From Bradymonadia bacterium (GTDB taxonomy: Bacteria > Myxococcota_A > Bradymonadia > UBA7976 > UBA1532), in assembly GCA_044376085.1 (NCBI GenBank), contig JBILLN010000005.1, forward strand, positions 1,125-65,124: DNA of 64,000 nt. Reading direction: 5' to 3'. The notes below the pieces were generated by a model. The model worked only from the letters and a program-made list of their open reading frames with translations. It was not told the DNA's origin and did no database searches. The position numbers and the translations under genes are program-made. Below are positions 138 through 25,590 of this stretch, piece by piece; positions within the stretch are counted from its first letter, which is position 1; each line of letters opens with the position of its first letter.

Positions 138-908
138 TCAGAACCGACTCGTGTAACCGATCGCACCGCCGCCCGGCACCATGCCGACGTCGATGCGCCC
201 GGCACCGGCCGAGTCCGCGTCGGCACGCCACCACAGAAAAACCGCCGTTCCAGCGGCGGCCGCCGCGGCCCCGAAACAGACATCCGCCACGAGCGCCCGA
301 GACTCTGCCGTGTCCTTGTGCTTCTGGGCGTCCCGCCGAATCTCCGCATCCCGGGCCGCCTGAGCCTCGCTCAGCGCCTGGAAGCCCATGACAGCGCCGC
401 CCGCCAGCGCGGCCACACCGACCCCCGCGGCGATCCAGGGCCATGGCCCAGGCCCCCGCTCGATGGTTTCGACCTCGACGGGCGCTTCGTCCGCCACGAC
501 CGTCGGCGCCTGGGCGACCGGCTCAGCACCGAGTTGCCGGACCTTGTGGATTACGGCCGTTTCGTCGGCGGGCTGCGTGGCGAGATAGGCGCGGTACCAT
601 TCCACGGCGCCCGGAATGTCCCCCATGCGCTCCCGGCTGCGCGCGACGTTGAAGAGCATGTCGCGGTGACGGGTCAGCGTGTGCGCCTTCTGGAACGCCT
701 GGGCGGCCGCCTCGAAGCGTCCGGCCCGGTAGTGACCGAGGCCGTCGAAGAAGACCGACTCGGCCTCGTCCAGCGTCTTCTGGTCGAGGGCACCGATTTC
801 GCGAATGTCCGTGAGTTCGGCAACGCTCACCGGCGCGCCCGGCGCTGCCTGCGCCGCATGGGTCACCGTGAGAAGGATGCAGAGGCTCGTGGAGAGTCGT
901 GCTTTCAT
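138..908 (-). CDS. Secreted TPR-like protein with a C-terminal single-pass membrane anchor
   Basis: ATG at 908 gives MKARLSTSLCILLTVTHAAQA, a signal peptide. A TPR-like helical hairpin follows, then a C-terminal hydrophobic helix WIAAGVGVAALAGGAVMGF. The start overlaps the upstream stop by 4 nt (ATGA). The track ORF 138..1283 is a 5' over-extension. Confidence 0.7.
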   Translation of the reverse strand: MKARLSTSLCILLTVTHAAQAAPGAPVSVAELTDIREIGALDQKTLDEAESVFFDGLGHYRAGRFEAAAQAFQKAHTLTRHRDMLFNVARSRERMGDIPGAVEWYRAYLATQPADETAVIHKVRQLGAEPVAQAPTVVADEAPVEVETIERGPGPWPWIAAGVGVAALAGGAVMGFQALSEAQAARDAEIRRDAQKHKDTAESRALVADVCFGAAAAAAGTAVFLWWRADADSAGAGRIDVGMVPGGGAIGYTSRF

Positions 909-4303: not shown

Positions 4304-4308
4304 GGAAC

Positions 4309-10135: not shown

Positions 10136-11120
10136 TCCGGGCGACCTCGCGAGGGTCGACAGCGGCGCGGACGACGTCCGCGACGAGGTTCATCACGATG
10201 ATGGCGAACGTGAAGAGAACGCTGAGCCCGACGACGACCGGGAAATCGCGCTGCTTCGAGGCCTCGAGCAGCAGGTAGCCGGCGCCGTCCAGGGTGAAGA
10301 CGTACTCGACGATGACGACGCCCCCCAGGACGACCGGCAGGCGTGCGGCGAATGCCGAGACGAACGGTACCACCAGGTTGCGAAACGTATGCGGAAGCGT
10401 CGAAGCCCCCTTCGACCGGATGGCCGCGATGAACTGCGCATTCCGGACGGCCAGAATCTCGGCGCGAACGGTATTGAGCATGTCCATGAAGAGTCCGTCG
10501 CCGGCGACGAGCACCAAACCGGCAAAGAAATAGGGCATCACGGACTCCGAATAGATGGGGATCGGGTACCACGGAGGGGTCTCGTACCCTGCGTCTTCGA
10601 CGAACCGCCGAACGAACGCATTCATCCCCTGCGAGAAGAAGATGGCGGCCACGAAGGCCGGCGCAGCCGTCAGAAAATACAGGAGTCCCGTCAACCACTG
10701 TTGCCGCGGCGACGGCTCCCCGAGTGCCACCGCGAGCGCCGTGGCGAGGAAGAGGCACAGGAGGAGCGCCCCGCCGCTCAGCAGCAGCGTCAGCTTGAAC
10801 GCCGGCCGTGCGATGGTCATCACCTGCTCGCCCGGAGCGAAGACCAGCGACTCACCGAAGTCCCCCGTCGCCGACCGACCCAACCAGGTCACGTACCCCG
10901 CGACCGGTGGCTGGTCGAGACCGAAGTCCGCCGCGAGCTTCTCTTTGACCTCAGGCGGCGTCCCCATCGGCGTGATGGCGTCAATGGCGTCACCGGGCGC
11001 CGACCGGATCGTGAAGTAGATCAGGAACGACGCGCCGACGAGCAACAAGAGACCCCCCGCCAGTCGACGCCCGGCCATGAGGACCAGGCCGAGCAGTCGG
11101 TTCAAGGGGAGAGCTCCCAC
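10128..11120 (-). CDS. ABC transporter permease (DppB/OppB-like)
   Basis: The N-terminus NRLLGLVL...FLIYFTIRSAPGDA resembles the DppB N-terminus. The protein has six or more predicted TM segments. It overlaps the binding-protein gene by 19 nt. Confidence 0.8.
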   Translation of the reverse strand: MGALPLNRLLGLVLMAGRRLAGGLLLLVGASFLIYFTIRSAPGDAIDAITPMGTPPEVKEKLAADFGLDQPPVAGYVTWLGRSATGDFGESLVFAPGEQVMTIARPAFKLTLLLSGGALLLCLFLATALAVALGEPSPRQQWLTGLLYFLTAAPAFVAAIFFSQGMNAFVRRFVEDAGYETPPWYPIPIYSESVMPYFFAGLVLVAGDGLFMDMLNTVRAEILAVRNAQFIAAIRSKGASTLPHTFRNLVVPFVSAFAARLPVVLGGVVIVEYVFTLDGAGYLLLEASKQRDFPVVVGLSVLFTFAIIVMNLVADVVRAAVDPREVARNG

Positions 11121-12658
11121 TCCGGGAACGAGGTGAAGTAGTAGAAGGGCTGGATATAGACGTTCCGGACCTTCTTGCTGATGCCCGAGTAGATGTCGAG
11201 GGACCAGAGGAAGTAGTACGGGAGGTCCTGGGCGAGCAGCGCGTGGAGCTGCTTCATCATTTCCTTGTACTTCTTGTAGTCCTTGGTCGCCTTGGCGGTG
11301 TCGAGCAGCGTGTCGACGTCCGCATTATTGTATCCGATGAAGTTCATCGGTCCCTTGCTGTGGAACAGCGGGTAGACGTCCTCGACCTCTTCGAACGACC
11401 AGATGTTCAGCGTCAGGTCGAACTTGCGACGGGTGAAGACCTGGTCGCGATAGCGGGCGTGGTCGACGTAGGTCGGCCGGGTCGTCACGCCGATCTTCTT
11501 GAGCTGCGCCTGAATGCCGAGGAAGAGAGCCTGGTTGCTGGCGAGTTCCTTGTCCATGACGAACTCGAAGTCGAGCTTGAGCTTGCCCTTCATCCGGACA
11601 TCGCCCTTCTTCTTCCACCCGGCGTCTTCGAGCAGCTGATTCGCCCGTTCGAGATCGACCGCGGCCTTCTCCACCTGGAAGTTGTAGAACGGGCTCGACT
11701 CGGTGAACGGCCCCGTCAAGATGTCGCCCCGACCCAGGTGAGCCTCCAGCAGCTCTTCGCGGTCGATCGCGAGGCCGATGGCCTGCCGCACGGGACGCTC
11801 GGCCAACGCCTTGTTCTCGTGGCTGTACGCCATGTACCACCAGGAGACCGTGTGGTACGGCTCGAGCACGACGGAGTCGCTGTTCTCGAAGAGGGCGATG
11901 TTCTTCGGCGGCAGGAAGATGACCGCCTGCACACCGGCCTTCACGCCCGAGTACTGGAGGAGGTTGATCTGGGCCGACTTGTCCGGCGTGTGCTGCATCT
12001 GCACTTCGCCGACCTTGGCCTGGTTCCAGTAGTCCGGATTCTGCTCGAGCGCGATGCTGCGCAGGCTGAACCCCCCCTTCTTCAGACGGAACGGCCCGGT
12101 CCCGACCGGTTCGCGCGCGAACTTGTCCTTGCGGCTGATCGCCGTGCCGGGGAAGGCGTGCTTCGGGATGATCTTCAGCGAGATGAACCGCTTCTCGGCC
12201 TCGGGAATCGGGCGCTCGAACGCGATGTGGACGCCGTACTGCCCCTCTGCGGTCACGTCACGGATGAAGTTGAACTTGCTCTTCGCGTTGAAGATCGTTT
12301 TCGGATCCTGTGCGGCCCGAATCGTGAAGACGACGTCCTCCGCGGTGAACGGCTCTCCGTCGTGCCACTTCACGCCTTCACGCAAGACGAAGCGAATGCC
12401 GCCCTGGTCGTCATCGACCTTCCACGAGGTCGCCAGACCCTTGTCGACGTCGCCCCGCTTGTTCTGGAAGACGAGCGAGTCGAAGATGAGTTCGACCATC
12501 CGGACGGCGCTCATGTCCTCCGCGAAGAACGGCAGCAGCGACGCCGGCCGGGTGTCCTCCGGGTAGTGGAACGTCTGCTGTGCGTTGGCGACCGTCGATC
12601 CGGGACCGAAGAACACGCCGAGGGCAATCGCGATGCGACCGAGAGTGCGCTGGAACAT
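11102..12658 (-). CDS. Periplasmic peptide-binding protein, SBP family 5 (DppA/OppA-like)
   Basis: 518 aa with a signal peptide MFQRTLGRIAIALGVFFGPGSTVANA. The length and conserved blocks (GVKWHDGEPFTAEDVVFT, GTGPFRL) are typical of family-5 binding proteins. Confidence 0.85.
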   Translation of the reverse strand: MFQRTLGRIAIALGVFFGPGSTVANAQQTFHYPEDTRPASLLPFFAEDMSAVRMVELIFDSLVFQNKRGDVDKGLATSWKVDDDQGGIRFVLREGVKWHDGEPFTAEDVVFTIRAAQDPKTIFNAKSKFNFIRDVTAEGQYGVHIAFERPIPEAEKRFISLKIIPKHAFPGTAISRKDKFAREPVGTGPFRLKKGGFSLRSIALEQNPDYWNQAKVGEVQMQHTPDKSAQINLLQYSGVKAGVQAVIFLPPKNIALFENSDSVVLEPYHTVSWWYMAYSHENKALAERPVRQAIGLAIDREELLEAHLGRGDILTGPFTESSPFYNFQVEKAAVDLERANQLLEDAGWKKKGDVRMKGKLKLDFEFVMDKELASNQALFLGIQAQLKKIGVTTRPTYVDHARYRDQVFTRRKFDLTLNIWSFEEVEDVYPLFHSKGPMNFIGYNNADVDTLLDTAKATKDYKKYKEMMKQLHALLAQDLPYYFLWSLDIYSGISKKVRNVYIQPFYYFTSFPEWELSP

Positions 12659-12685
12659 GGGACGAAGGACTCCTTTGGAACTCGA

Positions 12686-14257
12686 TCACTGGCCCGACGC
12701 GGCGCCGCCTTCCTGATCCATCGCACGGATGGTCAGAAGGTCACGCAGCATGTCCGCCGCAGCCGCGACCGCCGGAAAACGCTCGGCGAGGCGGCTGAAG
12801 TATTTGAGTGCGACGCGCGGTCGCCCGATGCGAACGTTTTCTCTGGCAGCCCGCGCCAGGGCGGCGACGCCGTTGCGCGGAGAGGGCGCGAACGCCGCGC
12901 TCTTGTCCTCGGCGTTCTCCAGATGCTTCAGGGCGACCTCGGGTGCTCCGCCGGACGAGGCCGCCTCGGCGAAGCGTCGCTCCACGGCATCCGCGTACCG
13001 CTCGACGAGGTTGAGCGCCGCCACGTCGGCCGCGCCCTTCGCTTCGGCCCCCAGGGCATCGATCTCCGCCCCGACGGTGCGGGCCAGCAACGCGCGGTCT
13101 TCGGGGAACGCTCCGGCATCGAGAGCGCCGCCGGTGGCCGTGGACGCCCAGGTCTTCAGGACCCGGTGGCCGATCGTGTCCGTCGGGAGTCCGGCCACAT
13201 CGGCCTTCGCCCCTTCGGCGTCCCCGGAAGCATGTCGAGCCCGAGCGAGCAACGCCCGCGCCTCCAGCGCGAGGTCCGCCCCCGAGAGCGCGTCCGTCAG
13301 GACGAGGTCGGCGAGCGGGGCCTCCGCCGGTGGTGCCGCGACGAGGGGTTCGAGTACGGTCTTCGCCTCGGCCGACCGACCGAGAAGCAGCAGGGCCCGC
13401 GCCTTGTGCAAGGCGGCCCAGCCCGGCGCCGGCCCGAGCGCTTCGAGCGCCCGCGTGGCGTGAACGCGCACGCCGAGATCGGCCAGTGCCGGGTCACGGA
13501 AGGAAACGGCGCCCTCACCCGGTCCGACGACGACATCCGGGGCGTTGGGCGGGATCTTCTCGAAGCGTGCGACGGCCTCCGTGGAGCGTCCGGCGGCGGT
13601 CAGGGCCGCGACGGCGAGTCGCGCCCCGTACTCCGGGGTCGCCCCGGGCGGGAGCGGTGCGTCCAGGCCTTCGACCTTGCCGGCCAGCAGCGCTGCGAGG
13701 GGACCCGTCGCCCCCGCTTTGGAGGCGGCGACGAGCGCGGCCAGCGGGCCGTCGGTCGCGAGGGCGCTCAGGTCCGGTGGACGGCCCGCACGGGTCGCCA
13801 GTCGTGCGCGCATCCACACGCGCCACGCGGCCCCTTCCGCGCCACCGGCGTCCGTCTTGGCTTCGGCGAGGCGTTCGGTGAGATCGGCCACGACCATCGC
13901 GACCGCGTCGTGCGCGGCCGCCAATTCGAGCGCGGCACGGGCTGCCCCCGTGCGCACCGGGTCGCCGGGCGGGGCCGTGCGAACCCCGGCCTCGAACGCT
14001 TCCAACGCGCCGGCCGGGTCGGACGTGAAGAGCTTGCCCCACCCCGGATTGGACTGGGCGAGCGTACCCAAAGCCGTCGCGTCCTTCGCCACGGCCAGCA
14101 CCCAGCTCTCGCGAACCCGGGCGCGGTCTGCGGACACGTCCACCGCAGGGGCGGAGGGCGCGCCACCCGGTGGACGTGCGGCCCGCTCCGTGCAGCCCGG
14201 ACCGACACCGACCAAGAGAGCGGCGGTCAGAGCGACGCGCCGGACGGAAGGCTTCAT
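12686..14257 (-). CDS. Ala-rich helical (TPR-like) lipoprotein
   Basis: ATG at 14257 gives MKPSVRRVALTAALLVGVGPGC, a lipobox. The composition is highly Ala/Leu-rich and helical-repeat-like. The upstream gene lies 5 nt away. The track ORF has a 5' over-extension. Confidence 0.6.
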   Translation of the reverse strand: MKPSVRRVALTAALLVGVGPGCTERAARPPGGAPSAPAVDVSADRARVRESWVLAVAKDATALGTLAQSNPGWGKLFTSDPAGALEAFEAGVRTAPPGDPVRTGAARAALELAAAHDAVAMVVADLTERLAEAKTDAGGAEGAAWRVWMRARLATRAGRPPDLSALATDGPLAALVAASKAGATGPLAALLAGKVEGLDAPLPPGATPEYGARLAVAALTAAGRSTEAVARFEKIPPNAPDVVVGPGEGAVSFRDPALADLGVRVHATRALEALGPAPGWAALHKARALLLLGRSAEAKTVLEPLVAAPPAEAPLADLVLTDALSGADLALEARALLARARHASGDAEGAKADVAGLPTDTIGHRVLKTWASTATGGALDAGAFPEDRALLARTVGAEIDALGAEAKGAADVAALNLVERYADAVERRFAEAASSGGAPEVALKHLENAEDKSAAFAPSPRNGVAALARAARENVRIGRPRVALKYFSRLAERFPAVAAAADMLRDLLTIRAMDQEGGAASGQ

Positions 14258-14262
14258 CCCGC

Positions 14263-15972
14263 TCAGAGCTCCAGACCGTTCTTCATCTCTTCGAGTTTCT
14301 TCATCTTGGCTTCGGCCGACGCGACGCCGCCGGGATCCGTCCCGCGCGCGATCGTGGCGTAGCGCTCCCACTGACGAAGCGCTTTGTCAATCAGGGAGAC
14401 GTTCGCCTTCTTCGGATCGTCGCTGTACTGGCGTTGGAACTCGAACTCGTACATTTCGGCGTAGAACTTGAAAGCGTCGTCCTTGAGATCGGCGGGCAGA
14501 TTCCGGATGTTCTCGTCCACCCGCTGCATGGTGCTCAAGGCCTTCCGGTAGTTGTTCGACTGGGCGTAGGACTTGGCAAGCGAAAGCAAGATGGTCGGGT
14601 CGCGCTTGTACCGCCCGCTGGTCGTGGCGACTTCGAGTTCCTCCGCCTGCCGGCGATAGTCTTTGTTCTTGTGGTGGTAGTCGGCCATGAGCCGATGGGC
14701 CTCGTAGTAGCCAGGGTGCGTCCGGTCGATCTGGCCGAGGAACTCCATGTCCGCCCGCGTCAGGACCTTGGACTGGCCGAGGCGACCCTGGATCTCGTCG
14801 AGCTTGCCGTCGATCTCCTCTTTGGACATCGTCGCGGCGCTCGGGCCACCCGCCGAAAGGGCAACGCCGCCGCGCTGTGCGGCCTTGGGGTCGACCGTGT
14901 CGCCGCCATCGTTCATCAACCCGCCGAGTTCCGTCGACTCGCGCGGCGCCTTGGGGGTCGCGACGCGCGGGGCCTCGACGACCGGGGGCGGCGGGGCGGC
15001 GGGTTCGTCGGGCAGCAGGTCATCGATGCCGGGCGCTTCGTCCCGCGGCGGCGGGGTCGGCGGCGCGACCGCGACGACCGGCGGCGGGGGCTCACGCTCC
15101 GGCGGCGGCTCGAACGCCGGCTCGGGGGCGATGTCGACCGAACCGGAGTTGCCACGAGACGCCGCGCGAGGCGCCGGCGTCGGCGCGGCGGCGACGGCCC
15201 ACGGATCGGGCTGGGCCTCGGCCGGTGGGGGGGTGGGCGCGGCCTCCGCGACGACCGCCTCGGGGGCCGGCGTCGGCACCGCAGGTTCTGTCGCCGGAGC
15301 TGCGGCGACCTCGACCGGCGCGGCGCCCGAGGGACCATCGGCGACCGGCCCGGTCCGAAGGGCCGAGAGAAGATAGACTTCGTCGTCCTCGGAGAACGTG
15401 CCCCGGAAGACGGCCGTGCCGGCCGACGCGACGAACTGGGCTCCGGGAACCCCGGAGATCTTGACCAGGGCGTCGCCCCCCGGGCCGGTCTTCCCGACCG
15501 CGACGTCGTTCACCTTGATGGGCGTACCCTCGGGCTCGGCCCGGACCATCAAGAGGAAGTCGCGCTCCGGACGCTGCAGCTCGGCGCGGAAATCGATCTG
15601 CAACGGGCGTCCGTCCGCCGGGTACTGGATCTTGACCTGCCACCGGCTCTGGTCGGGATTGGGCGGAACACTGTACCCCTCGGGTGCTTCGACGTTGAAC
15701 GTCAGCGTGTCGCCGTTCTTCGCCGGGTACTTGCCGGCGAATTTGCCCTCTTGGTCCGTGATGCCGAACTTCTTGTTGTTGATGTAGAAGCGAACGCTCT
15801 CGACCGGTTTGCTCTGCAAGTCGACCGTGGAGACGTTGAGCAGCACTTCCTGCTGGGGCGGCGGGGCGGCCGGTTTCTCTTTGCACCCACCGACCACCAT
15901 CAACGCCGTCAAGGCGAAGAGCACGAGAGCGGACGTGGCGCGCACGGGCAGGTTCGGAGTCGTCGTATTCAT
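14263..15972 (-). CDS. Lipoprotein with an N-terminal beta-sandwich-like domain, a Pro-rich linker and a C-terminal helical domain
   Basis: MNTTTPNLPVRATSALVLFALTALMVVGGC is a lipobox. The linker is about 120 aa and P/A-rich. The C-terminus is helical and Tyr-rich, and TPR-like. Confidence 0.65.
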   Translation of the reverse strand: MNTTTPNLPVRATSALVLFALTALMVVGGCKEKPAAPPPQQEVLLNVSTVDLQSKPVESVRFYINNKKFGITDQEGKFAGKYPAKNGDTLTFNVEAPEGYSVPPNPDQSRWQVKIQYPADGRPLQIDFRAELQRPERDFLLMVRAEPEGTPIKVNDVAVGKTGPGGDALVKISGVPGAQFVASAGTAVFRGTFSEDDEVYLLSALRTGPVADGPSGAAPVEVAAAPATEPAVPTPAPEAVVAEAAPTPPPAEAQPDPWAVAAAPTPAPRAASRGNSGSVDIAPEPAFEPPPEREPPPPVVAVAPPTPPPRDEAPGIDDLLPDEPAAPPPPVVEAPRVATPKAPRESTELGGLMNDGGDTVDPKAAQRGGVALSAGGPSAATMSKEEIDGKLDEIQGRLGQSKVLTRADMEFLGQIDRTHPGYYEAHRLMADYHHKNKDYRRQAEELEVATTSGRYKRDPTILLSLAKSYAQSNNYRKALSTMQRVDENIRNLPADLKDDAFKFYAEMYEFEFQRQYSDDPKKANVSLIDKALRQWERYATIARGTDPGGVASAEAKMKKLEEMKNGLEL

Positions 15973-15991
15973 GGCTTGGCTGCCCGTCCCG

Positions 15992-16423
15992 TCAATTGCC
16001 GATGACCGGCGTGGAGGTCGTATCGGCTTCGAATTCCTTCTCCTGCGTCGGATCCGGGGCCGTCTCGTTGATGTCCGGTGTACGAGGCGCGAGCGTGATG
16101 TCCGGGACCTTGGTCGGTCCGCCCTCGATGGTGACCTCGTACGCGGCGTCTTCGAAGCCGAACTTGCGGACCTTGATCTTGTAGACGCCGGCGGGAATCG
16201 GCTCCGTCTCTCCGGACTCGTTCAGCCGCTGGCGCAGGGTGAAGAAACCACGGTTATTGGTCATGACGACGTCGGTCTCGGGCTCGGTGAAGATCTCGGC
16301 CTTCGAGACTGCGCTGCCCTTCTGGTCGAGAACACGTCCGGTCAGCGACACGGGCTGCGAGCCGCACGCGACGAGCGTCAGGAGGGCGGCCCAGAGGCCG
16401 GTCACGCGGAGAATGGCGTTCAT
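15992..16423 (-). CDS. Small lipoprotein with a carboxypeptidase-regulatory-like (CarbopepD_reg/PEGA-like) beta-sandwich
   Basis: MNAILRVTGLWAALLTLVACGS is a lipobox. LTGRVLDQKGSAVSKAEIF...GVYKIKVRKFGF is typical of the fold. Confidence 0.6.
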   Translation of the reverse strand: MNAILRVTGLWAALLTLVACGSQPVSLTGRVLDQKGSAVSKAEIFTEPETDVVMTNNRGFFTLRQRLNESGETEPIPAGVYKIKVRKFGFEDAAYEVTIEGGPTKVPDITLAPRTPDINETAPDPTQEKEFEADTTSTPVIGN

Positions 16424-16433
16424 GGCGGCGCTC

Positions 16434-16904
16434 CTACTGCTTCATCCGCTGACCGATGACGCTCATCGCGTACTCCACGGTCAGGTCGCGGGGGTCGAGA
16501 TCACGGAGGCTGGCGAGGTGGTCGTAGGCATCCGTCAACTTGCCGTCGATCGACGCCTGGACCGCCTTGCCGAGCAGGTCCTGCCGGAGTCGGGCAATCT
16601 CGGGAGCACCATTCGCCTGGGCGATGCGGTTTCCGATCTCCTGCAGCAGGTCCGGTGCATCGTTCTGAAGCTTGCGGCCCGTGATGAGCAGGTAGGCGCG
16701 CGCGTACTTCTTCAGCCCTTGCGAAAGCATGTCTGCCTTCTTGTCGGCACGCGCTTTCGCCGCGTCGTCGAGCAGCGCGCGGCCCTCGTCGGCCATTGCC
16801 TTGGCATCTTCGACGGGTCCGGCGAAGGCCGGCACCGCGAAGAACGCGAGGCCGAGGACGAGCGCGCAGCGAACGGGCACTGAACGTGGAGAGCGCAAAC
16901 GCAT
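16434..16904 (-). CDS. Small secreted helical protein
   Basis: Signal peptide MRLRSPRSVPVRCALVLGLAFFAVPAFA. It lies 10 nt upstream of the next gene. Confidence 0.5.
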   Translation of the reverse strand: MRLRSPRSVPVRCALVLGLAFFAVPAFAGPVEDAKAMADEGRALLDDAAKARADKKADMLSQGLKKYARAYLLITGRKLQNDAPDLLQEIGNRIAQANGAPEIARLRQDLLGKAVQASIDGKLTDAYDHLASLRDLDPRDLTVEYAMSVIGQRMKQ

Positions 16905-16972: not shown

Positions 16973-19231
16973 TCACGGGCGCGCCAAGGTGAGGTCCACC
17001 GTGGTTCCGGGAGCGGAGAGCGTCACGTCCTTCTCTTGGGACGCAAACCCAGGCAGCTCGACCTGGAAACGCGCGACCGTCCCGTTCGATCCAAGGAGAG
17101 TGAGCGGGGTCCGGCCGATCTCTTTGCCGTCGAGCCGGATCGTCGCGCCCGAGGGGTCCGTCCGGACCGTCCCGGCCCCCAGCTCGCCACTGCCGCTGGC
17201 CGGCAATCGGACGTGGAGCCAGACCTCGCCACGGGTCTCGTCCAGCCGAGCCCGCCAGGAGCTCTTGCCCTTCGAGAACTGGAGCGAATGGGCCTCCCCC
17301 GTCGGCGTGACCGGGTGCTCGAGCGGCGTCTCACCGACGAAGAGGTTGCGATCGAAAACCTCGACCGCGGGCGGGTCGCTCGACACGACGAGCTTCGGGG
17401 GCGATTGCGGCTCCGCGGCCGCGCCGGCGCCGAACGGGTCGAGCAGAACGACCCCCACGACCGCGGCCGTCGTCAAGGCGACCGCCGCGCCGACCGCCAG
17501 CCAGGTCTTCAAACCGGCGCCGCCGCTGCGGACGGGTCCACCCGCCGGCAGTCCGACGGCCGTCGGTCGGGGGTTGATCTCGCGGGGGGGCGCCTTGACG
17601 GTCGGCAAGGCCGGCACCGAAGGCGCGTCCGCCGATGCGGGCCCGACGGCGCGTGGCGGCGGCGGCGAGGCGGCCGGGGGCGCCGGCGGAGAAGGCGCCG
17701 GCGCGGGGTGACCCATGAGAGTTCGTTTGTCGGACCCGGCTGGTGGCGGCGACCGCGCGGGGGGCGGCGCAGGGGCAGGTTCCGGCAAGCGGGCCGGGGC
17801 CTTCGACTCGGGCGGTTCGAACCGCTGAACGGGCATGCCGGTCCGGGTCGCTTTGGGTTCGGGAGCAGGCGCCGCGGACTTCGAGCCCCCACGCGCCGCC
17901 GCTTCGACGTCGGCGATCGGCACGATGCGCGACGGCTCGACCTCCATCAGCTCGCCGTCGTCGAGTTCGAGCATGGTCGACTCTTCGGCTCGGGAGGACA
18001 GCCCCGTCGGGATGATGCCTCCCCCCCCGAACGTGTCGATGCTCGGACCCATCATGACGCCGTCGTCGAGGTCGCCGTCCTGGCTCGCATCCCCGCCGTC
18101 GTCGGTCTCGAAGAACGTCTTCTCTTCGGCGGCCGGGGTGGGCTGTGGCTCGTCGCCGAACTCGAGAAACGTGCGCTCGTCGTGAAAGGACTGCGCTTCG
18201 GCGGACTCGTCGGCCGGATCGAGCACGGCGTCGGGCGGCGGTGCCACGGGCCGCGAGACGTTTTCGTCCGTCGGTCGGGTATCGGGCTGAGAGCCGACAC
18301 GTCCCGCCCGGGCCGCCAACTGAGCCGGGACAGCGTAGAAGCCGCTGTTGAACTTGTAGTTCTCGAGGGCTTCGAGAAACTCGTCGGCCGACTGGTATCG
18401 GGCGCGACGGTCCTTCTCGAGGGCCCGGAGGACCGTCCGTTCGAGTTCGACGTTGATCTCCCCTCGCAAGGACCGCAGCGCGGGCGGCAGGTCGCGCAGA
18501 TGGGCCATCATGACTTCGACGGGGGTCGGCGCGACGAAGGGCAACCGGCCGGCGAGCAGCTCGTAGAAGATGATGCCGAGCGAGTAGAGGTCCGACTGGG
18601 GCTCGACCGGCTTGCCGCGGATCTGCTCGGGGCTCATGTAGTTCGGCGTCCCGTAGATCTTGCCGGCCATCGTGAGACCACCCTGGTAGCCCTCGACGCC
18701 GTCCTGGACGGCGGTGAGCTTGGCGATCCCGAAGTCGAGGACCTTGACGAAGTCGCGGTCCCCTTCCATTTCGGTCAGGAAGACGTTGTCGGGCTTCAGG
18801 TCGCGATGAACCATGCCCATCCGGTGCGCTTCCGCGATGGTGCGCAGCGTCTGGGTCATGATCTTGACCGCCCCCTCGATCTTCAGCGGGCCGACGCGCC
18901 GGAGGCGCTGCTTCAGCGTCTCGCCACCGAGGAACTCCATCGCGATGTACAGCAGGCCGTCGACCGTCTGCCCGAAGTCGTGGATGACGATCGCGTTCGG
19001 ATGCTTGAGACGCGACGCGAGATAGGCTTCGTGGCGAAACCGCTCGACGGAGATCGGGTCACCGCGCTGGTCGTGCAGCAGGATCTTCAGGGCCACGACC
19101 CGGTCGACGGAGATCTGACGGGCCTTGTAGATGGCCCCCATCCCGCCTTCGCCGAGCTTCTCGAGGATCTGGAAGCGGTCGTCGATCACCGCACCGAGAA
19201 GCGAGTCTGCCGAAAATTCGTCGCGCGACAT
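16973..19231 (-). CDS. Ser/Thr protein kinase with a Pro-rich linker, one TM helix and two extracytoplasmic PEGA domains
   Basis: ATG at 19231 gives MSRDEFSADSLLGAVIDDRFQILEKLGEGGMGAIYKA. HRDLKPDN, DFG and SPE motifs are present. The TM helix is WLAVGAAVALTTAAVVGVVLL. PEGA-like blocks occur in the C-terminal 200 aa. The track ORF 16973..20371 over-extends the N-terminus. Confidence 0.85.
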   Translation of the reverse strand: MSRDEFSADSLLGAVIDDRFQILEKLGEGGMGAIYKARQISVDRVVALKILLHDQRGDPISVERFRHEAYLASRLKHPNAIVIHDFGQTVDGLLYIAMEFLGGETLKQRLRRVGPLKIEGAVKIMTQTLRTIAEAHRMGMVHRDLKPDNVFLTEMEGDRDFVKVLDFGIAKLTAVQDGVEGYQGGLTMAGKIYGTPNYMSPEQIRGKPVEPQSDLYSLGIIFYELLAGRLPFVAPTPVEVMMAHLRDLPPALRSLRGEINVELERTVLRALEKDRRARYQSADEFLEALENYKFNSGFYAVPAQLAARAGRVGSQPDTRPTDENVSRPVAPPPDAVLDPADESAEAQSFHDERTFLEFGDEPQPTPAAEEKTFFETDDGGDASQDGDLDDGVMMGPSIDTFGGGGIIPTGLSSRAEESTMLELDDGELMEVEPSRIVPIADVEAAARGGSKSAAPAPEPKATRTGMPVQRFEPPESKAPARLPEPAPAPPPARSPPPAGSDKRTLMGHPAPAPSPPAPPAASPPPPRAVGPASADAPSVPALPTVKAPPREINPRPTAVGLPAGGPVRSGGAGLKTWLAVGAAVALTTAAVVGVVLLDPFGAGAAAEPQSPPKLVVSSDPPAVEVFDRNLFVGETPLEHPVTPTGEAHSLQFSKGKSSWRARLDETRGEVWLHVRLPASGSGELGAGTVRTDPSGATIRLDGKEIGRTPLTLLGSNGTVARFQVELPGFASQEKDVTLSAPGTTVDLTLARP

Positions 19232-19330
19232 GCAGCTCCTGTGAGGACCGGGTCGGATATTAACCCAGCGCGCCGGGAGTGCAAACCAGGAGTGCGGCCC
19301 TGCCCCCTGGCCGATCGCCCTTCGGACGCG

Positions 19331-19358
19331 TTGACCCGCTCCGCTCACCTTGTATAGA
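19331..19358 (+). promoter_or_regulatory. Sigma70-like promoter candidate: TTGACC-16 nt-TATAGA with TG at -15/-14
   Basis: An AT-rich island in GC-rich DNA, about 40 nt upstream of the ATG at 19397 (MKIPS...). It sits in the divergent intergenic region between the kinase and the FCGBP-like lipoprotein. Confidence 0.35.
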
Positions 19359-19396
19359 TCGACACATACAGAAACCTTTCGGAATGTTCCCGCTCC

Positions 19397-21448
19397 ATGA
19401 AGATCCCCTCGACCGGGCTTCGGGTGGCCCTCTCCGCCCTTTCGCTCTTCCCGGTTGCCTGCGGCTCGTCCGACGGCGCGACCCCCGAAGTGCAGGAGGA
19501 CGCCACGACTGCGGAGGCCGGCGCCGGCGGCGGCGGTGGGACACGCCCGGACGCGAGCGGCGGGGGCGGTGCCAGCGAGTGCACCCCCGATGAACGTCGC
19601 TGTTCGGAAGCGGGTCAGCCCGAACGATGCACCGACGGGCGTTTCCGCGCGGACGACCCGTGTGCTCCCAACGAGGTCTGCACCGACGGCAACTGCCAGG
19701 TGCCGATGCTCTGCGAGCCGGACACGACGCGGTGCGCGGACGCTCGCACGCTCGAGATCTGTGCGCCCGACGGTACGTCCTGGGTGTCGACGGAGTGCGA
19801 GGGCAGCTGCAACTCCGCCGGTGGGACGGCGACGTGCGGGGATGTCGTCTGCGCGGCCGGAGAACGGACCTGCTCGGGCGACCAGATCGTGATCCAGTGC
19901 AAGGCCGACGGTACCGGGTTCGAGTTCGCCGAGAACTGCAACGGCGCGCGGACGGCGCGCCAGTGCGACCGGGGTGAGTGCCAGCCGATCTGCAAGCTGA
20001 CCGAGAAGCTCAGGACCAACATCGGCTGCGACTACTGGGCCGCCGATCTGGACAACGCCTTCGTGCCCGGTGGCGAAGAAGGCTTTCTCGACGCGGCCGC
20101 CGAGCAGTATTCGGTCGTCGTCTCGAATCCGCACCCCGAGTTCACGGGCGAGGTCTCCGTCTACAACAACGAGGAGGTCGTCGAGACGGCGGTCGTGCCG
20201 CCGCTGGGGCTTCACGTCTTCAATCTGCCGCGCCGGGACGTCGACGGCACCATCCTGGCGCCGCGCGCGTATCGCGTGCGGAGCAGCATCCCCGTCGTGG
20301 CCTACCAGTTCAATCCCCTCCAGAACGAAGACGTCTTCAGCAACGACGCCTCGCTTCTCCTGCCCAGCCACGTGCTGGGCAAGAAGTACTACGTCATGAC
20401 CCGCGAGCAGAGCTTCGACCGCCTCCGCGGATACCTGACGGTCATCGGCATCAACGAAGAGGCCCCGACGCGAGTCCGCGTCACGGTGACCGCCCCCACC
20501 CGCCCGGGCGTGAGCGGGATTCCGGCCCTCGCCCCCGGCGAAACGTTCGAGGCCACGCTCAACCAGTTCGACACCTTGAACATCGAAACCAATGCCCCCG
20601 GCGCCGACCTCACGGGGTCACTCATCGAGGCGGACTCGGAGGTCGTCGTTTTCGGCGGCAGCGAAGCCGCCAATGCCCCGAACACGAACCATTGCGTGAA
20701 CGTGGATCCGGCAACCGGCGAGGGCGTCTGCGAGTACAAGACGGACGTGACGTGCCGGACGAACTACGACTGCAACGACGCCCGGCTGAACACGTGCTGC
20801 GCCGACCACCTCGAAGAGCAGCTCTTCCCGGTGTCGACGCTCGGCAAACACTACATCGGCACCAAGAGCTTCGACCGCGGGCTGGAGGACGACTACTGGC
20901 GGATCCTCGCGGTCGAGGACGGCACCAAGGTCGAGACCGTGCCTCCCCAGGTGCCGATCCCGGAGCTGAACGCGGGCCAGTGGTTCGAGTTCGGCAGCCG
21001 GGAGCACTTCGAGATCCTGAGCGACAAACCGATCATGGTCGGTCAGTTCCTGGCGAGCGAGCAGGCACCGGACCCGAATCTGCGCGACTTCGAGGAGCCC
21101 GGGGACGCCGGGACGGGTGATCCGTCGTTCATCCTCGCCGTGCCGGTCGAGCAGTTCCGCTCGGACTTCGTCTTCCTCGTGCCGGACAAGTACGCCTACA
21201 ACTACGTCTCCCTGATCGCGCCGGTGACGGCTGCCATCGACTTCGACAACGGCCCCGTGCCCGCCACGTTCGAGCCCGTCGGTGCCGGCGACATCTGGCA
21301 GATTGCGCGATTCCCCGTCGGGGCGGGGGTCCATTTCATCCTGTCGGACGAGCCCCTTTCCATCATCGTCTACGGCTACGACCAGTACGTTTCGTACGGG
21401 TATCCGGGCGGCCTGAACCTCGACGTGACGGCGGAGCTCGAGCAGTGA
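19397..21448 (+). CDS. Lipoprotein with an N-terminal Cys-rich module and an IgGFc-binding-protein N-terminal-like (FCGBP_N) domain
   Basis: MKIPSTGLRVALSALSLFPVACGS is a lipobox. A repeated CxxxxC...C module follows. C-terminal blocks HVLGKKYYVMT, VVVFGGSEAANAP and SDKPIMVGQFLASEQA resemble the FCGBP_N domain. Confidence 0.65.
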   Translation: MKIPSTGLRVALSALSLFPVACGSSDGATPEVQEDATTAEAGAGGGGGTRPDASGGGGASECTPDERRCSEAGQPERCTDGRFRADDPCAPNEVCTDGNCQVPMLCEPDTTRCADARTLEICAPDGTSWVSTECEGSCNSAGGTATCGDVVCAAGERTCSGDQIVIQCKADGTGFEFAENCNGARTARQCDRGECQPICKLTEKLRTNIGCDYWAADLDNAFVPGGEEGFLDAAAEQYSVVVSNPHPEFTGEVSVYNNEEVVETAVVPPLGLHVFNLPRRDVDGTILAPRAYRVRSSIPVVAYQFNPLQNEDVFSNDASLLLPSHVLGKKYYVMTREQSFDRLRGYLTVIGINEEAPTRVRVTVTAPTRPGVSGIPALAPGETFEATLNQFDTLNIETNAPGADLTGSLIEADSEVVVFGGSEAANAPNTNHCVNVDPATGEGVCEYKTDVTCRTNYDCNDARLNTCCADHLEEQLFPVSTLGKHYIGTKSFDRGLEDDYWRILAVEDGTKVETVPPQVPIPELNAGQWFEFGSREHFEILSDKPIMVGQFLASEQAPDPNLRDFEEPGDAGTGDPSFILAVPVEQFRSDFVFLVPDKYAYNYVSLIAPVTAAIDFDNGPVPATFEPVGAGDIWQIARFPVGAGVHFILSDEPLSIIVYGYDQYVSYGYPGGLNLDVTAELEQ

Positions 21449-21489
21449 CGCCGTCCGCGTGGCCAAACGTCCCTCACTTCGGAAGGAGC

Positions 21490-24400
21490 ATGCCCATGCG
21501 GGCGATTCCCCTCCTCGCGATGCTCTCCGTCCTGACACTCGGCTGCGAAGGTGAGCCGGGCGCGGATGCGCCGACCGAATCGACGGCGTCGACCTGCGGG
21601 GACGGCGTCGACAACGACGGCAACGGCCGCGTCGATTGCGACGACACCTCGTGCGACGCGTTCTGCGAGGAAGTGTCCGGCGACGCCCGACTGCGCTCCG
21701 ACCAGGGGACTGAGCCCGAAGGAGACGGGGGCCCCCCCCCCGGCGACGCCGAGCGTCCGCCGGCCGACGGGGGGACGGGCTCGGACGACGCGAACGTCAT
21801 CGTCGTCCCCGATGCGAGCGAAGTCCTTCAACCGTTCGGGATCAACAGCGTCGTTCCGAACCGCGGCATTCTGGCGGGCGGTACCGAGGTCCGGATCATC
21901 GGTACCGGCTTCAAGCCGGAGGTCGTTTTTCTCTTCGCCAATCAGTTCGAGTGCCGGAACATCGTCGTCGAGAATCAGAATCGCGCCACCTGCACCACGC
22001 CTCCGGGCGAGCAGGTCGGGCCGGCCGACGTTCTGGCCCAACAGCCGTCGAGCGATCCCTTCGCGCGACCGGGAACGATGGAACAGGTCCAGCTGACCGC
22101 CGGGTTCGCCTACTACGAGCCGGTCTCGATTTCGACGGTCACCCCCGACCGAATCCCGCTTCGGGGTGGGGTCCAGTTGACCGTCCGCGGGACCGGCCTC
22201 GTCGAGGGTACCGAGGTCCACGTCGGGGACACGGAGGCCCTGAGCCCGGAGTACATCGCCCCGGACGAGATGCGCGTCTTCGCGCCGGCCGGCTCGCCCG
22301 GCTTCGCGGAGGTCCGTGTCGGGAACTTCAACGGAAACGACACGCTGGCCCGGGCCGTCTTCTACTACGAGGATCTCGAGCTTCTGGCCGTCGAGCCCGG
22401 CGCGGGTCCCCTGGCGGGTGGCAACGAGGTCGTCCTGACGGGTCGGGGTCTGGTCGACGCGAGCATGGTGACATTCGGGGATGCCGTCGCAGCCGTCGTC
22501 GAGGGCAGCGCCGACCATGCCCGGTTGACGGTCACGGCGCCCGCGGGCGACGCTCGGGGGCCGGTCGACGTTTCAGTGACCAACGACAACGGGACCTCGG
22601 TGCTGCGAGGCGGGTACGTGTACTTCGACCCGGGCGCAGACGCCCTCGCCGTCGACGGTCTCGCCCCCGCGAGCGGTCCTGTGGAGGGCGGAAATGCCGT
22701 CTTCGTCGCCGGCGCCGGGTTCGCCGCCGACACCTCGGTCACCGTGGCCGGTCGAGTCGTCGACTGCGACCGGATCGACGAGCACGTCCTTCGATGCACC
22801 ATGCCGCCGGGAGATCTCGGTCCCGCGGATGTCGCCGTCCGGTCCGGCGGCGACTCGGTTCTTCTCCCGGGCGGGTACACCTACTACCAGAGCCTCGAGA
22901 TTCTCGCCGTCCGCCCCGAGGCGGGCGCCGTCGCGGGCGGAACGTTCGTCGCCCTGACGGGCCGAGGCTTCGTCGACGGCATGACCATCGACCTCGGCGG
23001 CATCGAGCTCGTGGACGTCCGCGTGGTCGGCGACGCCCGTGCGGAGGGTCGTACGCCGCCCAATACGGCGGGCCCCGTGGATGTCCACGTGACCTCTCCG
23101 TTCGCACGCGCGACCCTCCCCGCCGGGTACACCTACTTCGATCCCATCTCCCGCTTCGGCGGCGTCTGGGGCGACGAAATCCGAGGCGCCGTCAATGTGA
23201 CGACGATTCATGCGACGACGGGCGCCTTCCTCGAGGAAGTCGCCGTCCTGGCCATCTCGGAAGAGACGGAGGTCCGTATCGAAGGGCTGACGAACGCCCA
23301 GGGCCAGGTGGTGCTGTCCGAAGAGGGGCTTCGCGGGCCGCTCAACATCACCGCGGCGAAAGAGGGCTTCGAGGTCACGACGGTGGAAGACGTCGAGACG
23401 CAGAACGTGACGATCTACCTCACGCCCAACACCTCCGAGATGGGCCCGCCCCCGCCGGGCGTGGCGCCGGCCATCCTGCGCGGCAACGTCAGCGGGCTCG
23501 ATCTGCTGCCGAAGCCGGACCGGGAGAGCAAGGTCAACGTCATCGTCGTGGAGACGACCCACAGCACACCCTACAACCGCCCATACCTGCCCCCCCCGGG
23601 CCCCGGCGGGCTCCTCTTCGAGGACGGCCCGTTCGAGATCATCGCCCGTCCCGGCGAGTTGGCCATCGTCGCCACGGCCGGCGCGCTCGACCGCGCCGTG
23701 CTGACGCAGTACGAGAACGGTGAGTTGGACTACTGGAGCATGCGGCAGTCGCTCGAGCCGGCTTCGATGGGCTTGCGGCGCTTCATCTCCGCGAGCCCCG
23801 GCATCGAACTCGATGGCCTCGACGTGGAGATCGATCATCCGATGGATCTCGAACTGCCGATCGACCTGGACAATCCGCCGGCGGGCGGCGCGGGGGGACC
23901 GGAGTACTACGCCGCGCTCATCCGGCTCAACCTGGGAGCGGAGGGCTTCTGGGAGATCGACACCCAGGCGTTCGACCTGCAACCCGCGCTGGTCATGCCG
24001 CGCCTCCCTCGCTTGGACGGATGGGATGCGGACATCACCTACTACTTCTTCGGTCTCGCCATCTCCGCGACCGACAGCCAGACGCCCATGTCGATCACCG
24101 TCGAAGAAACGCGCGACGTCGAAGGCGGCGTCCTCATCACGCCGTTCGTGGCCGCTCCGTTCCTGGTCGACCCCCTGGACGGCGCCGCTCTCGCCGACAG
24201 TCGTGTCGTCGATTGGGAGACCTACCCGGGCTTCGATGGCCCAATCGATCCGCCGGACGGCAACCTCGTCCTGATCGAAGAACCGGCCTTCCCGGCCCCG
24301 AAACCGATGTGGCGATACGTGACGCCGGGGCCGGTCTCCGAGTACCAGATCCCGGAACTCCCGGAGATCGCCGGCAGTGCCGGACTCAGCGCCGAGCTCA

Positions 24401-24525
24401 ATATCCTGACGATCATTCCCTTCCGCGTCGACGGGCGATTCGACTTCGGCGAGTTCACGTACGACGAGCTCAGCCAGTTCCGCTGGAAGGCCTGGGCCGT
24501 GCATTCCACGGTCTTCACCCCCTGA
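21490..24525 (+). CDS. Large lipoprotein with multiple IPT/TIG (Ig-like) domains
   Basis: A GGAAGGAG RBS lies 2-9 nt upstream of the ATG at 21490. MPMRAIPLLAMLSVLTLGCEG is a lipobox. Repeated P..G...GG..V.I.G.GF IPT-like units are present. Confidence 0.75.
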   Translation: MPMRAIPLLAMLSVLTLGCEGEPGADAPTESTASTCGDGVDNDGNGRVDCDDTSCDAFCEEVSGDARLRSDQGTEPEGDGGPPPGDAERPPADGGTGSDDANVIVVPDASEVLQPFGINSVVPNRGILAGGTEVRIIGTGFKPEVVFLFANQFECRNIVVENQNRATCTTPPGEQVGPADVLAQQPSSDPFARPGTMEQVQLTAGFAYYEPVSISTVTPDRIPLRGGVQLTVRGTGLVEGTEVHVGDTEALSPEYIAPDEMRVFAPAGSPGFAEVRVGNFNGNDTLARAVFYYEDLELLAVEPGAGPLAGGNEVVLTGRGLVDASMVTFGDAVAAVVEGSADHARLTVTAPAGDARGPVDVSVTNDNGTSVLRGGYVYFDPGADALAVDGLAPASGPVEGGNAVFVAGAGFAADTSVTVAGRVVDCDRIDEHVLRCTMPPGDLGPADVAVRSGGDSVLLPGGYTYYQSLEILAVRPEAGAVAGGTFVALTGRGFVDGMTIDLGGIELVDVRVVGDARAEGRTPPNTAGPVDVHVTSPFARATLPAGYTYFDPISRFGGVWGDEIRGAVNVTTIHATTGAFLEEVAVLAISEETEVRIEGLTNAQGQVVLSEEGLRGPLNITAAKEGFEVTTVEDVETQNVTIYLTPNTSEMGPPPPGVAPAILRGNVSGLDLLPKPDRESKVNVIVVETTHSTPYNRPYLPPPGPGGLLFEDGPFEIIARPGELAIVATAGALDRAVLTQYENGELDYWSMRQSLEPASMGLRRFISASPGIELDGLDVEIDHPMDLELPIDLDNPPAGGAGGPEYYAALIRLNLGAEGFWEIDTQAFDLQPALVMPRLPRLDGWDADITYYFFGLAISATDSQTPMSITVEETRDVEGGVLITPFVAAPFLVDPLDGAALADSRVVDWETYPGFDGPIDPPDGNLVLIEEPAFPAPKPMWRYVTPGPVSEYQIPELPEIAGSAGLSAELNILTIIPFRVDGRFDFGEFTYDELSQFRWKAWAVHSTVFTP

Positions 24526-24546
24526 GAAGGCAGCCGGCCTCGGCTC

Positions 24547-25590
24547 TCAGGCGACGAAGAGCACCTCCTCGGGTTCGCGGAGGCCGTGGTGGGCAAAGTA
24601 GGCCCGAAGACCCGCGCGACGCCCCTCCCCGCCGATGGCGACGAGCACCATCGCCTCCGGGCCGAGCTGGTCTCGGACGGCTTCCAGCGTCACGACCGGC
24701 GACCCACCGATTCGCTGCCCGAGCCGCCGCGGATGGAGGTCCAGGAATCCATCGATGGGGCGCCCCCGGTCGGCCAGCGCCCGTGCGATGCGTTTCGCAT
24801 CGTCCCCGGCACCGGCGATGTAGACGCGCGCACGGTCCCGAAGGGGCCCGGCCAGCAGGTGCGTCGCCTTGCAGGCTGCCAGGGCGCCCGGCGAGCAGTG
24901 CGCGGAGGTGCGCGTCAAGCGCGCCCCATGGTCCCGCCACCACGTCAGAATCTCAGGTGACTTGCCCATCGGAACGCCGGCCGCGAACAACCGCAACCAG
25001 AGGTCGTAGTCCTCGGGCCAGCCGCACTCGCGGTACCCACCGAAACGCAGCACCGTCTCGCGGTGGAAGAGGACCGAGGGATGGACGAACGGGCTCTCGA
25101 CGAATCGCTCGCGCGCCATCGCAGCGGCGTCCACCAGGCCGTTCTGCCACGCTTCGTAGCGCCGCAGCCCCTTCTTGACCATCGAGGCGGGAAAACACCG
25201 GATACCCGAGCCGACGACGGCCCAGCCGTTGCGCCGCGCCAGGTCGAGTTGACGCGCGAGTCGATCCGGATGCACCAGGTCGTCCGAATCGAGCCGCGCG
25301 ACGTAGGGCGCACGAGCCATCTGCAGGCCGGCGTTCAGGGCCGGTACGAGACCGAGCCGGGCCCCCCGGACCCAGCGCAGGCGTGACTCGCTGGCGGCCC
25401 AGGACGACAGAAGCATCGGCGTTTCGTCGTCCGAGCCGTCGTCGACCACCACGACTTCGAATCGAACACCCCGACTCCGTCGGACGGTGTTCCAGGTCGA
25501 TGGCAGGTATCGTGCGCCATCGCGAACCGGGATGACGACGCTGACCTCCGGCGCATCGATTTCGTCCGTCCGTGGTAGACTCAGGGCCAT
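24547..25590 (-). CDS. Family 2 glycosyltransferase
   Basis: VSVVIPVRDGARYL, VVVDDGSDDET and DSDDLVHPDRL (DxD) motifs. The start is taken at ATG 25590. An alternative upstream start at 25734 cannot be excluded. Confidence 0.75.
   Translation of the reverse strand: MALSLPRTDEIDAPEVSVVIPVRDGARYLPSTWNTVRRSRGVRFEVVVVDDGSDDETPMLLSSWAASESRLRWVRGARLGLVPALNAGLQMARAPYVARLDSDDLVHPDRLARQLDLARRNGWAVVGSGIRCFPASMVKKGLRRYEAWQNGLVDAAAMARERFVESPFVHPSVLFHRETVLRFGGYRECGWPEDYDLWLRLFAAGVPMGKSPEILTWWRDHGARLTRTSAHCSPGALAACKATHLLAGPLRDRARVYIAGAGDDAKRIARALADRGRPIDGFLDLHPRRLGQRIGGSPVVTLEAVRDQLGPEAMVLVAIGGEGRRAGLRAYFAHHGLREPEEVLFVA

Follow-up and report, generated by a model that had tools for sequence, protein, structure and literature searches.

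A conserved gene pair in uncultured Myxococcota predicted to encode two stalked lipoproteins with an FCGBP_N head and an undescribed beta head

A 64 kb stretch of DNA from a Bradymonadia bacterium (68% GC; here called the window, meaning the whole stretch analysed) carries two adjacent genes, gene 1 and gene 2, whose products, P1 and P2, raise the question of whether they form a functional unit and, if so, what that unit does outside the cytoplasm. A reading made from the sequence alone, before any database search, had described the two genes as a secreted module made of an FCGBP_N-like, Cys-rich lipoprotein and a lipoprotein with many IPT/TIG domains, and had suggested surface adhesion or cell–cell recognition as its role. 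We found that the two genes remain neighbours across deep divergence, and that in both products conservation is lowest next to the predicted lipid anchor and highest in the distal part.

To place the pair, a genome scan with two peptide patterns, one of them including a TCCADH-containing stretch, retrieved at least 595 loci encoding relatives of P1; the synteny, tree and neighbour counts given here refer to the best 80 of these. All 80 come from metagenome-assembled genomes (MAGs), often with several paralogues per genome, and nearly all carry Myxococcota-like labels, while the few labelled Enterobacteriaceae, Klebsiella or Akkermansiaceae look like misassignments. A protein identical to P1 occurs on 11 public contigs from metagenomes. 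Among genome records the nearest, at 92% identity, is a MAG labelled ‘Myxococcota bacterium’, and further near relatives carry Bradymonadia or Myxococcales labels. A homologue search returned 1703 homologues; those in MAGs of Myxococcota and Bradymonadia bear the name ‘IgGFc-binding protein’.

In about 40 of the 80 loci, a P2 homologue lies directly downstream of the P1 homologue on the same strand. In a neighbour-joining tree every member of the window’s subclade has the partner (13/13), and pairing reaches deep branches at 38–40% P1 identity. At 38% identity no other neighbour is conserved. Around the pair we found a divergent Ser/Thr kinase gene, a convergent glycosyltransferase family 2 (GT2) gene that ends 21 nt past gene 2, and, as other neighbours, hypothetical lipoproteins, nucleotidase-like genes and a peptide-binding protein; of these, the kinase, GT2, peptide-binding protein and hypothetical lipoprotein genes accompany the pair only in close relatives. 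Since adjacency persists to 38% identity while the other neighbours change, synteny indicates that P1 and P2 form a genuine conserved module. Only 47 nt separate the two genes and a terminator scan called nothing between them, which together with the pairing bears out the two-gene module that had been proposed. The divergent receptor kinase of the sequence-only reading is also real, with a Pkinase domain, one transmembrane segment (aa 577–597) and a PEGA domain, but we rejected it as part of the module because its presence beside the pair is lineage-specific. Neither motility, secretion or envelope genes nor SusC/SusD genes were found in the neighbourhood, the former as conserved neighbours of the pair and the latter as genes nearby.

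On the same synteny, the link is obligate in neither direction. A separate P1 clade of 25 loci is wholly without a P2 partner and distant P2 relatives occur without P1, so neither protein strictly needs the other. The partner-less P1 paralogues have assorted downstream genes, on which Pfam gave nothing informative; two of these paralogues (L016, 6074–8071; L026, 11872–13878) are followed by a gene for a ~625-aa repeat-rich lipoprotein with beta-propeller-like GxxGxIL...W repeats and no Pfam match. For P2, relatives at ~30% identity belong to another operon that is itself conserved (L084, 1632–11645; L085, 2038–10731; L086, 1960–9099) and also encodes a ~375-aa lipoprotein with a DxSGS (VWA/MIDAS-like) motif and a weak VWA_2 match (E 0.004), a ~485-aa HYDIN/PKD-Ig lipoprotein, and a ~484-aa lipoprotein with Cys-rich repeats that is unrelated to P1 and whose C-terminal region reads PPC-like by eye, with no Pfam match. 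L084 and L085 have one or two more uncharacterised genes downstream where sequence exists. That the gene upstream of these distant P2 relatives encodes a diverged FCGBP_N protein was considered and rejected, at an hhalign probability below 10%.

We then asked what the two proteins are made of. In P1, a Pfam scan confirmed the FCGBP_N-like domain with a match to PF17517 (IgGFc_binding/FCGBP_N; E 2.2e-63, 214.7 bits against a cutoff of 25.6) that covers model positions 1–297 of 297. The match takes up 344 residues of P1, which suggests an insertion within the domain. PF17517 was the sole Pfam match, and the scan detected no C-terminal type IX secretion system (T9SS) sorting domain, PKD or SprB repeats. 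Inside the domain lies a loop with six Cys that are invariant in the family (C433, C445, C453, C459, C467 and C468). The family’s most conserved stretch, N-T-C-C-A-D-H-L-E-x-Q, combines adjacent invariant Cys-Cys with Asp-His and Glu and may be a metal site, an active site or a structural element. The Cys-rich character reported earlier holds as well, with 27 Cys in total, of which 26, an even number, remain after the anchor Cys. Many of them lie in the three stalk repeats, which by direct reading follow C-x6-C-x8-C-x10-12-C-x3-8-C-x4-8-C and which the AlphaFold2 (AF2) model renders as beta-hairpins with a predicted local distance difference test score (pLDDT) of 85–91. A Pfam search of these repeats found no family, TILa being a weak, sub-threshold match (E 0.038). 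Mature P1 is very acidic (D+E against K+R, 103:43) and its AF2 model, like that of P2 a confident one, is almost wholly beta (pLDDT 79.6; predicted template modelling score 0.70).

The P1 head is hard to relate to known structures. A PDB profile search turned up no solved structure related to P1 in sequence, Foldseek with the P1 model gave no match at E <= 1e-3, and in these sequence-profile and fold searches we found no solved structure containing an FCGBP_N domain. The best and sole confident fold match for the head is the ASRT/TM1070 beta-sandwich, over ~90–120 residues. A candidate model in which the head consists of four fused ASRT-like repeats was not supported, as hhalign among the four segments reached a probability of at most 43%, and that for one pair.

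For P2 the long open reading frame (ORF) reaches back to GTG 21445. The real start lies further in, at ATG 21496, because the Shine–Dalgarno-like GGAAGGAG lies 7 nt upstream of it, public gene calls begin there, and orthologues at 47–85% identity have equal length. The ribosome-binding site that had been noted before gene 2 is thereby confirmed, and Shine–Dalgarno-like sequences precede the P2 gene in nine relatives too. Both products had been called lipoproteins. This stands for P2, since its LTLGC passes the PROSITE-type rule for a lipobox and 27 of 35 P2 relatives pass it too; LFPVAC of P1 fails the PROSITE PS51257-type rule solely through Pro at −3, though its Cys is conserved in at least 90% of the family and 29 of 40 P1 relatives pass.

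Downstream of the anchor, aa 30–58 of P2 resemble NCBIfam acid_disulf_rpt (E 1.1e-5, under the family cutoff), and the linker that follows has an AF2 pLDDT below 50. The predicted IPT/TIG domains are real (PF01833, E 2.1e-46, 156.3 bits against a cutoff of 20.9), but the count of eight or more was too high: Pfam finds five stretches, the AF2 model has five Ig-like sandwiches over aa 113–549, and hhalign gives a probability of 99.7% between TIG copies and less than 7% for TIG against any later segment. The remaining approximately four beta-sandwich units of P2 are not TIG. The TIG region also matches the NCBIfam choice-of-anchor Z repeat NF058597 in three stretches (79.7 bits, cutoff 30). A PDB profile search with P2 matched only plexin/MET IPT domains; its C-terminal region has no PDB sequence match, and the C-terminal 361 aa have no Pfam match in any of 16 family members (16/16). 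A profile of this region nevertheless found 973 representatives of 50%-identity clusters at E <= 1e-3, 457 of them at E <= 1e-30. Among the matches listed, it mostly lies at or near the C-terminus of ~1000–1100-aa proteins, and the many shorter entries are probably fragments. Because it lacks Pfam and PDB matches and yet yields this many clusters, we conclude that the C-terminal region represents a sizeable undescribed domain family. P2 keeps an even number of Cys after the anchor (8), is very acidic when mature (D+E against K+R, 148:56), and is modelled as almost wholly beta (pLDDT 84.9).

Aligning each protein with its relatives revealed a common trend, in which identity climbs outward from the anchor. 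In P1 it rises from 19% in the linker through 41–58% in the Cys repeats to about 75% in the head, and in P2 from 24% in the linker through 49–60% in the TIG domains to 59–72% in the C-terminal region, with aa 30–110 the least conserved part of P2. Across 77 homologues, the most distant at ~36% identity, conservation reaches 93% or more at 96 positions of the P1 head, whose conserved motifs include DLDN, AYQFNPLxNxxVxSNDASLLLP, GSExxNxP, TCCADHxExQ and DAxxGDP. These polar motifs could reflect Ca2+ sites or catalysis. A conserved tip on a variable stalk is the reverse of a polymorphic recognition receptor, and the gradient fits binding of an invariant ligand or partner.

Upstream of gene 1, the sequence-only reading had placed a near-consensus sigma-70-like promoter. 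Its two boxes, TTGACC-N16-TATAGA (19331–19358), are unique in the 64 kb even when one mismatch is allowed (0.01 matches expected by chance). In an alignment of the window with three relatives at 92, 87 and 75% P1 identity (L015, L004 and L005), CGCGTTGACCC and GTATAGA are invariant at fixed spacing, with the spacer and the remaining intergenic sequence diverged. A relative at 67% (L007) keeps TTGACC-16-CATAGA, and GCGTTGACC is kept at 66% and 61% (L008 and L014). The element is phylogenetically footprinted. The boxes therefore stand as unique and conserved, but ‘near-consensus’ was an overstatement: they match the consensus at 5/6 and 4/6 positions (9/12), without the T at −7, and a promoter scan called no promoter at the locus because TATAGA matches 4/6 and lacks that T. 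Nor does the proposed ‘TGt’ work as an extended −10 element, since its spacing would fit TGn only with ATAGAT, a poor match, taken as the hexamer. The AT-rich island described there holds at small scale; no 30-nt window of the 64 kb has a lower GC content than 19350–19379 (33%), and the 40-nt window at 19349 has 38% GC, one of two that low. A separate promoter-like pair on the minus strand of this intergenic region, TTTGCA-17-TAATAT (19285–19280 and 19262–19257), was read from a three-relative alignment as conserved and plausibly serves the Ser/Thr kinase gene.

The two-gene unit ends on its 3′ side at a stem-loop without a U-tract, which spans the 21 nt that separate gene 2 from the convergent glycosyltransferase gene. 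Three terminator-like sites were called, all inside coding sequence and at the count expected by chance. Intergenic short repeats were at chance level only, and an Rfam scan of 19000–24800 returned nothing meaningful.

Together, these observations lead us to a tentative proposal, to which we give somewhat less than an even chance: genes 1 and 2 would be a two-gene operon for an exported, lipid-anchored pair whose heads act together and bind a conserved extracellular ligand. The operon, in an uncultured high-GC Myxococcota bacterium, would be transcribed from the conserved −35/−10-like element and be bounded by the divergent kinase gene and the convergent glycosyltransferase gene. Both proteins are predicted to be exported, lipid-anchored, very acidic and disulfide-bonded, and to share one plan that runs from an N-terminal lipid anchor through a flexible linker and a variable stalk to a conserved distal head. 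The P1 stalk would consist of the three six-Cys repeats and its head of the ~485-aa FCGBP_N module; P2 would have a stalk of five IPT/TIG domains and the transthyretin-like domain, and a ~360-aa head of the undescribed beta type. Anchored presumably in the outer membrane, the two heads would act together, probably as a complex, on a conserved extracellular ligand, most likely a polysaccharide, and the unit would serve adhesion or capture rather than variable recognition.

Several features are in keeping with parts of this proposal. The signal peptide and Cys are kept in both families, and even Cys counts after the anchor are consistent with an oxidising extracytoplasmic location. Surface adhesion is made plausible by the stalk-plus-head layout and by the extracellular-type domains FCGBP_N, IPT/TIG and choice-of-anchor Z; distant P2 relatives offer an adhesin context, lying in operons with PKD/HYDIN-Ig, Cys-rich and DxSGS-motif lipoproteins. 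A glycan ligand is only a lead, suggested in part by the ASRT-like fold and by a 67-kDa Teredinibacter ‘IgGFc binding protein’ listed in a secretome table with the cellulose condition only (PMC12055684). A further-reaching version is speculative and in our view improbable: the FCGBP_N lipoprotein and its IPT/TIG partner would form an unrecognised heteromeric surface complex, widespread in uncultured aquatic Myxococcota, whose FCGBP_N head and undescribed ~340-aa C-terminal partner domain jointly recognise a conserved glycan such as slime, exopolysaccharide or a prey wall polymer.

Other observations weigh against the proposal. The P1 lipobox is atypical, with its Pro at −3. In the structural models the ASRT-like match spans only ~90 of the 683 P1 residues and the other fold matches are generic sandwiches. 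The many P1 paralogues without P2 and the distant P2 relatives without P1 show that neither protein strictly needs the other. Literature searches found no experimental datum for any member. To our knowledge, surface exposure of myxobacterial lipoproteins is not predictable from sequence. Moreover, the dense invariant polar motifs of the P1 head could equally mean catalysis or metal binding.

This last point is the root of an alternative in which the P1 head is an extracellular enzyme, for example a polysaccharide lyase or hydrolase or a protease, with P2 as its substrate-binding or scaffolding partner. The 96 columns conserved at 93% or more across 77 homologues are rich in clustered Asp, Asn, Ser, Glu and His motifs (DLDN, SNDAS, GSExxN, CCADHxE and DAxxGDP), there are weak jelly-roll or cupin-like fold matches to germin, pirin, vicilin and KduI, and the cellulose-condition entry from Teredinibacter (PMC12055684) could be read in the same way. 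However, in animals and Bacteroidota FCGBP_N forms the tip of long proteins that are not enzymes (PMC4948705). Pfam, NCBIfam and PDB profiles gave no catalytic-family match, Foldseek gave none at E <= 1e-3, and the sole confident structural match is to the non-catalytic ASRT/TM1070 sandwich, so we regard an enzyme as unlikely. An anti-phage role received no support from PADLOC, in which 0 defence families matched P1 or P2. Location raises a different alternative, since lipoproteins of diderm bacteria face the periplasm by default: P1 and P2 could be part of a periplasm-facing structural or envelope assembly for motility, secretion or envelope maintenance rather than surface adhesins. Strong head conservation would fit protein–protein contacts inside such a machine, and Lang et al. 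speculated that bacterial FCGBP_N proteins are linked to gliding (PMC4948705). Yet motility, secretion and envelope genes are not conserved beside the pair, five IPT/TIG domains plus long linkers would, going by domain count, exceed typical periplasmic width, and the choice-of-anchor Z repeat family was defined on surface-anchored proteins; we hold this possibility, too, to be doubtful.

The cell–cell recognition suggested by the sequence-only reading is not favoured in its polymorphic sense. In Myxococcus xanthus, outer-membrane exchange depends on TraA/TraB, a two-gene unit whose receptor combines a Cys-rich stalk and a distal beta-domain with a lipid anchor, and the Cys-rich stalk and distal beta-domain of P1 on a lipid anchor resemble that layout in a two-gene unit of a social bacterial phylum. 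A kin-recognition unit of this kind would, however, be expected to vary at its tip, as the distal domain of TraA does, whereas in the P1–P2 pair conservation peaks in the heads (about 75%, and 59–72%) and variation in the stalks. Pfam and NCBIfam searches also detected none of the PA14 domain, MYXO-CTERM tag or OmpA-type partner of TraA/TraB, and we consider this explanation quite improbable. Even less credit is due to the idea that genes 1 and 2 are unrelated neighbours with independent functions. Some P1 paralogues do have other downstream genes and distant P2 relatives other upstream genes, but about 40 loci spread over deep branches agree in order, strand and adjacency while all other neighbours change, making chance adjacency very improbable.

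How far does the proposed adhesion or capture pair resemble known systems? Our literature searches, which covered PF17517, IgGFc in combination with Myxococcus or lipoprotein, and TIG in combination with Myxococcus, turned up no functional study, and no paper was found on the P1–P2 pair or the P2 C-terminal domain. Bacterial FCGBP_N proteins, including those of Myxococcus, were catalogued in 2016 by Lang et al., with no function assigned (PMC4948705). P1 resembles them in its strong family match and in being secreted. In theirs, however, the domain is N-terminal in a long PKD/SprB/CHU_C protein, a position that is typical rather than required, whereas in P1 it is C-terminal (aa 317–660 of 683), behind a lipid anchor and a Cys-repeat stalk and with no T9SS sorting domain detected; P1 further differs in its six-Cys loop with the invariant TCCADH and in its specific downstream partner gene. 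With human FCGBP, a mucus protein, P1 shares the FCGBP_N family and an extracellular disulfide-rich context, but it lacks vWD-C8-TIL units, the sub-threshold TILa match being all that recalls them. IgG-Fc binding by human FCGBP is itself disputed, and a 2025 structure paper describes the role of FCGBP_N as unclear, the mouse protein solved there being without the domain (PMC11796319). Close to P2 are IPT/TIG-stalked surface lipoproteins of the Bacteroides SGBP-B or SusE/F-like kind, which belong to Sus-type loci, and the choice-of-anchor Z repeat proteins of NCBIfam, but no SusC/SusD genes lie near the P2 gene, and our searches did not connect the P2 head with any known glycan-binding domain. 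Likeness of the P1 head to the ASRT/TM1070 superfamily is at fold level only, with no sequence-level relation; that superfamily, which includes cell-surface lipoproteins, was predicted to be sugar-binding by De Souza, Iyer and Aravind (PMC2739507).

The locus is a correct but fairly ordinary find, in which P1 and P2 belong to known kinds and have a few undescribed features. For P1 the new aspects are an unusual layout, in which a lipid-anchored Cys-repeat stalk carries FCGBP_N at its distal end, and the extra six-Cys loop; P2 joins the predicted lipoproteins with IPT/TIG domains and choice-of-anchor Z repeats and adds a new head. Novelty is modest, consisting of the conserved pairing and an unannotated domain family, with no new principle. 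Myxococcota are rich in large secreted lipoproteins, and such a locus is as expected there.

Table 1. Coordinates of the P1–P2 locus in the window
Feature	Position	Strand	Basis or remark
Divergent membrane Ser/Thr kinase, periplasmic PEGA domain	16973–19231	−	Pkinase 2.5e-45, PEGA 1.6e-12 (Pfam)
−35-like box TTGACC, in conserved block CGCGTTGACCC	19331–19336	+	Phylogenetic conservation
AT-rich stretch over −10 box and short leader	19349–19388	+	GC scan
−10-like box TATAGA	19353–19358	+	16 nt past −35 box; predicted transcription start ~19365
Gene 1 (P1)	19397–21448	+	683-aa acidic, disulfide-rich predicted lipoprotein with FCGBP_N head; ORF and translation
P1 signal peptide and lipobox-like LFPVAC (Cys22)	19397–19462	+	Cys22 >=90% conserved in family
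P1 stalk, three tandem ~45-aa six-Cys repeats (aa 62–199)	19580–19993	+	Sequence and AF2 model
P1 conserved head (aa 200–683)	19994–21445	+	Holds Pfam IgGFc_binding at aa 317–660 (20345–21376)
Six-Cys loop within FCGBP_N domain (P1 aa 425–476)	20669–20824	+	Invariant motif TCCADHxExQ
Shine–Dalgarno-like GGAAGGAG for gene 2	21481–21488	+	7 nt before ATG 21496
Gene 2 (P2)	21496–24525	+	1009-aa acidic predicted lipoprotein; start as in public gene calls
P2 signal peptide and lipobox LTLGC (Cys17)	21496–21546	+	Passes PROSITE-type lipobox rule
P2 acidic double-disulfide motif (aa 30–58) and Gly/Pro/Asp-rich linker (aa 59–110)	21583–21825	+	NCBIfam, AF2
P2 stalk, five IPT/TIG domains (aa 113–549)	21832–23142	+	Pfam, AF2, hhalign
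P2 transthyretin/CarboxypepD_reg-like beta-sandwich (aa 550–645)	23143–23430	+	
P2 C-terminal head (aa 649–1009), all-beta, undescribed domain family	23440–24522	+	AF2 pLDDT ~90
Stem-loop over 21-nt gap, gene 2/convergent glycosyltransferase gene	24520–24553	.	RNAfold −15.9 kcal/mol

Elsewhere in the window, a minus-strand block at 11102–16904, comprising a gene for an SBP_bac_5 peptide-binding protein and four predicted lipoprotein or TPR-like hypothetical genes, one of them for a 143-aa CarboxypepD_reg protein, remains syntenic with the P1–P2 pair in relatives with as little as ~61% P1 identity, including where there is no kinase gene; common descent or a looser functional tie may explain this. 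At 46158–57686 (−), a single 3842-aa ORF has solely TPR repeats (TPR_6 at 1e-37 among others) as its Pfam content over the full length, which makes its product an unusually large all-TPR protein. The gene at 905–4339 (−) encodes one more large, Cys-rich protein of the secreted type (1144 aa), which has repeated MopE-type ‘putative metal-binding’ Cys motifs (PF11617, 3e-19). A 677-aa ORF at 39329–41362 (+) with high G+C at third codon positions (GC3) and no Pfam match at E <= 1e-5 adjoins a DEAD/DbpA helicase gene.

FCGBP_N is common to bacteria and to an abundant human mucus protein, and a bacterial form that is compact, strongly conserved and tied to a fixed partner gene would be a tractable system for a ligand search. 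The P2 C-terminal domain, with roughly a thousand 50%-identity clusters, merits description as a family. If the two heads did form a heteromeric glycan-recognition complex, this would provide the first functional handle on FCGBP_N, a domain that is used in animal mucus too.

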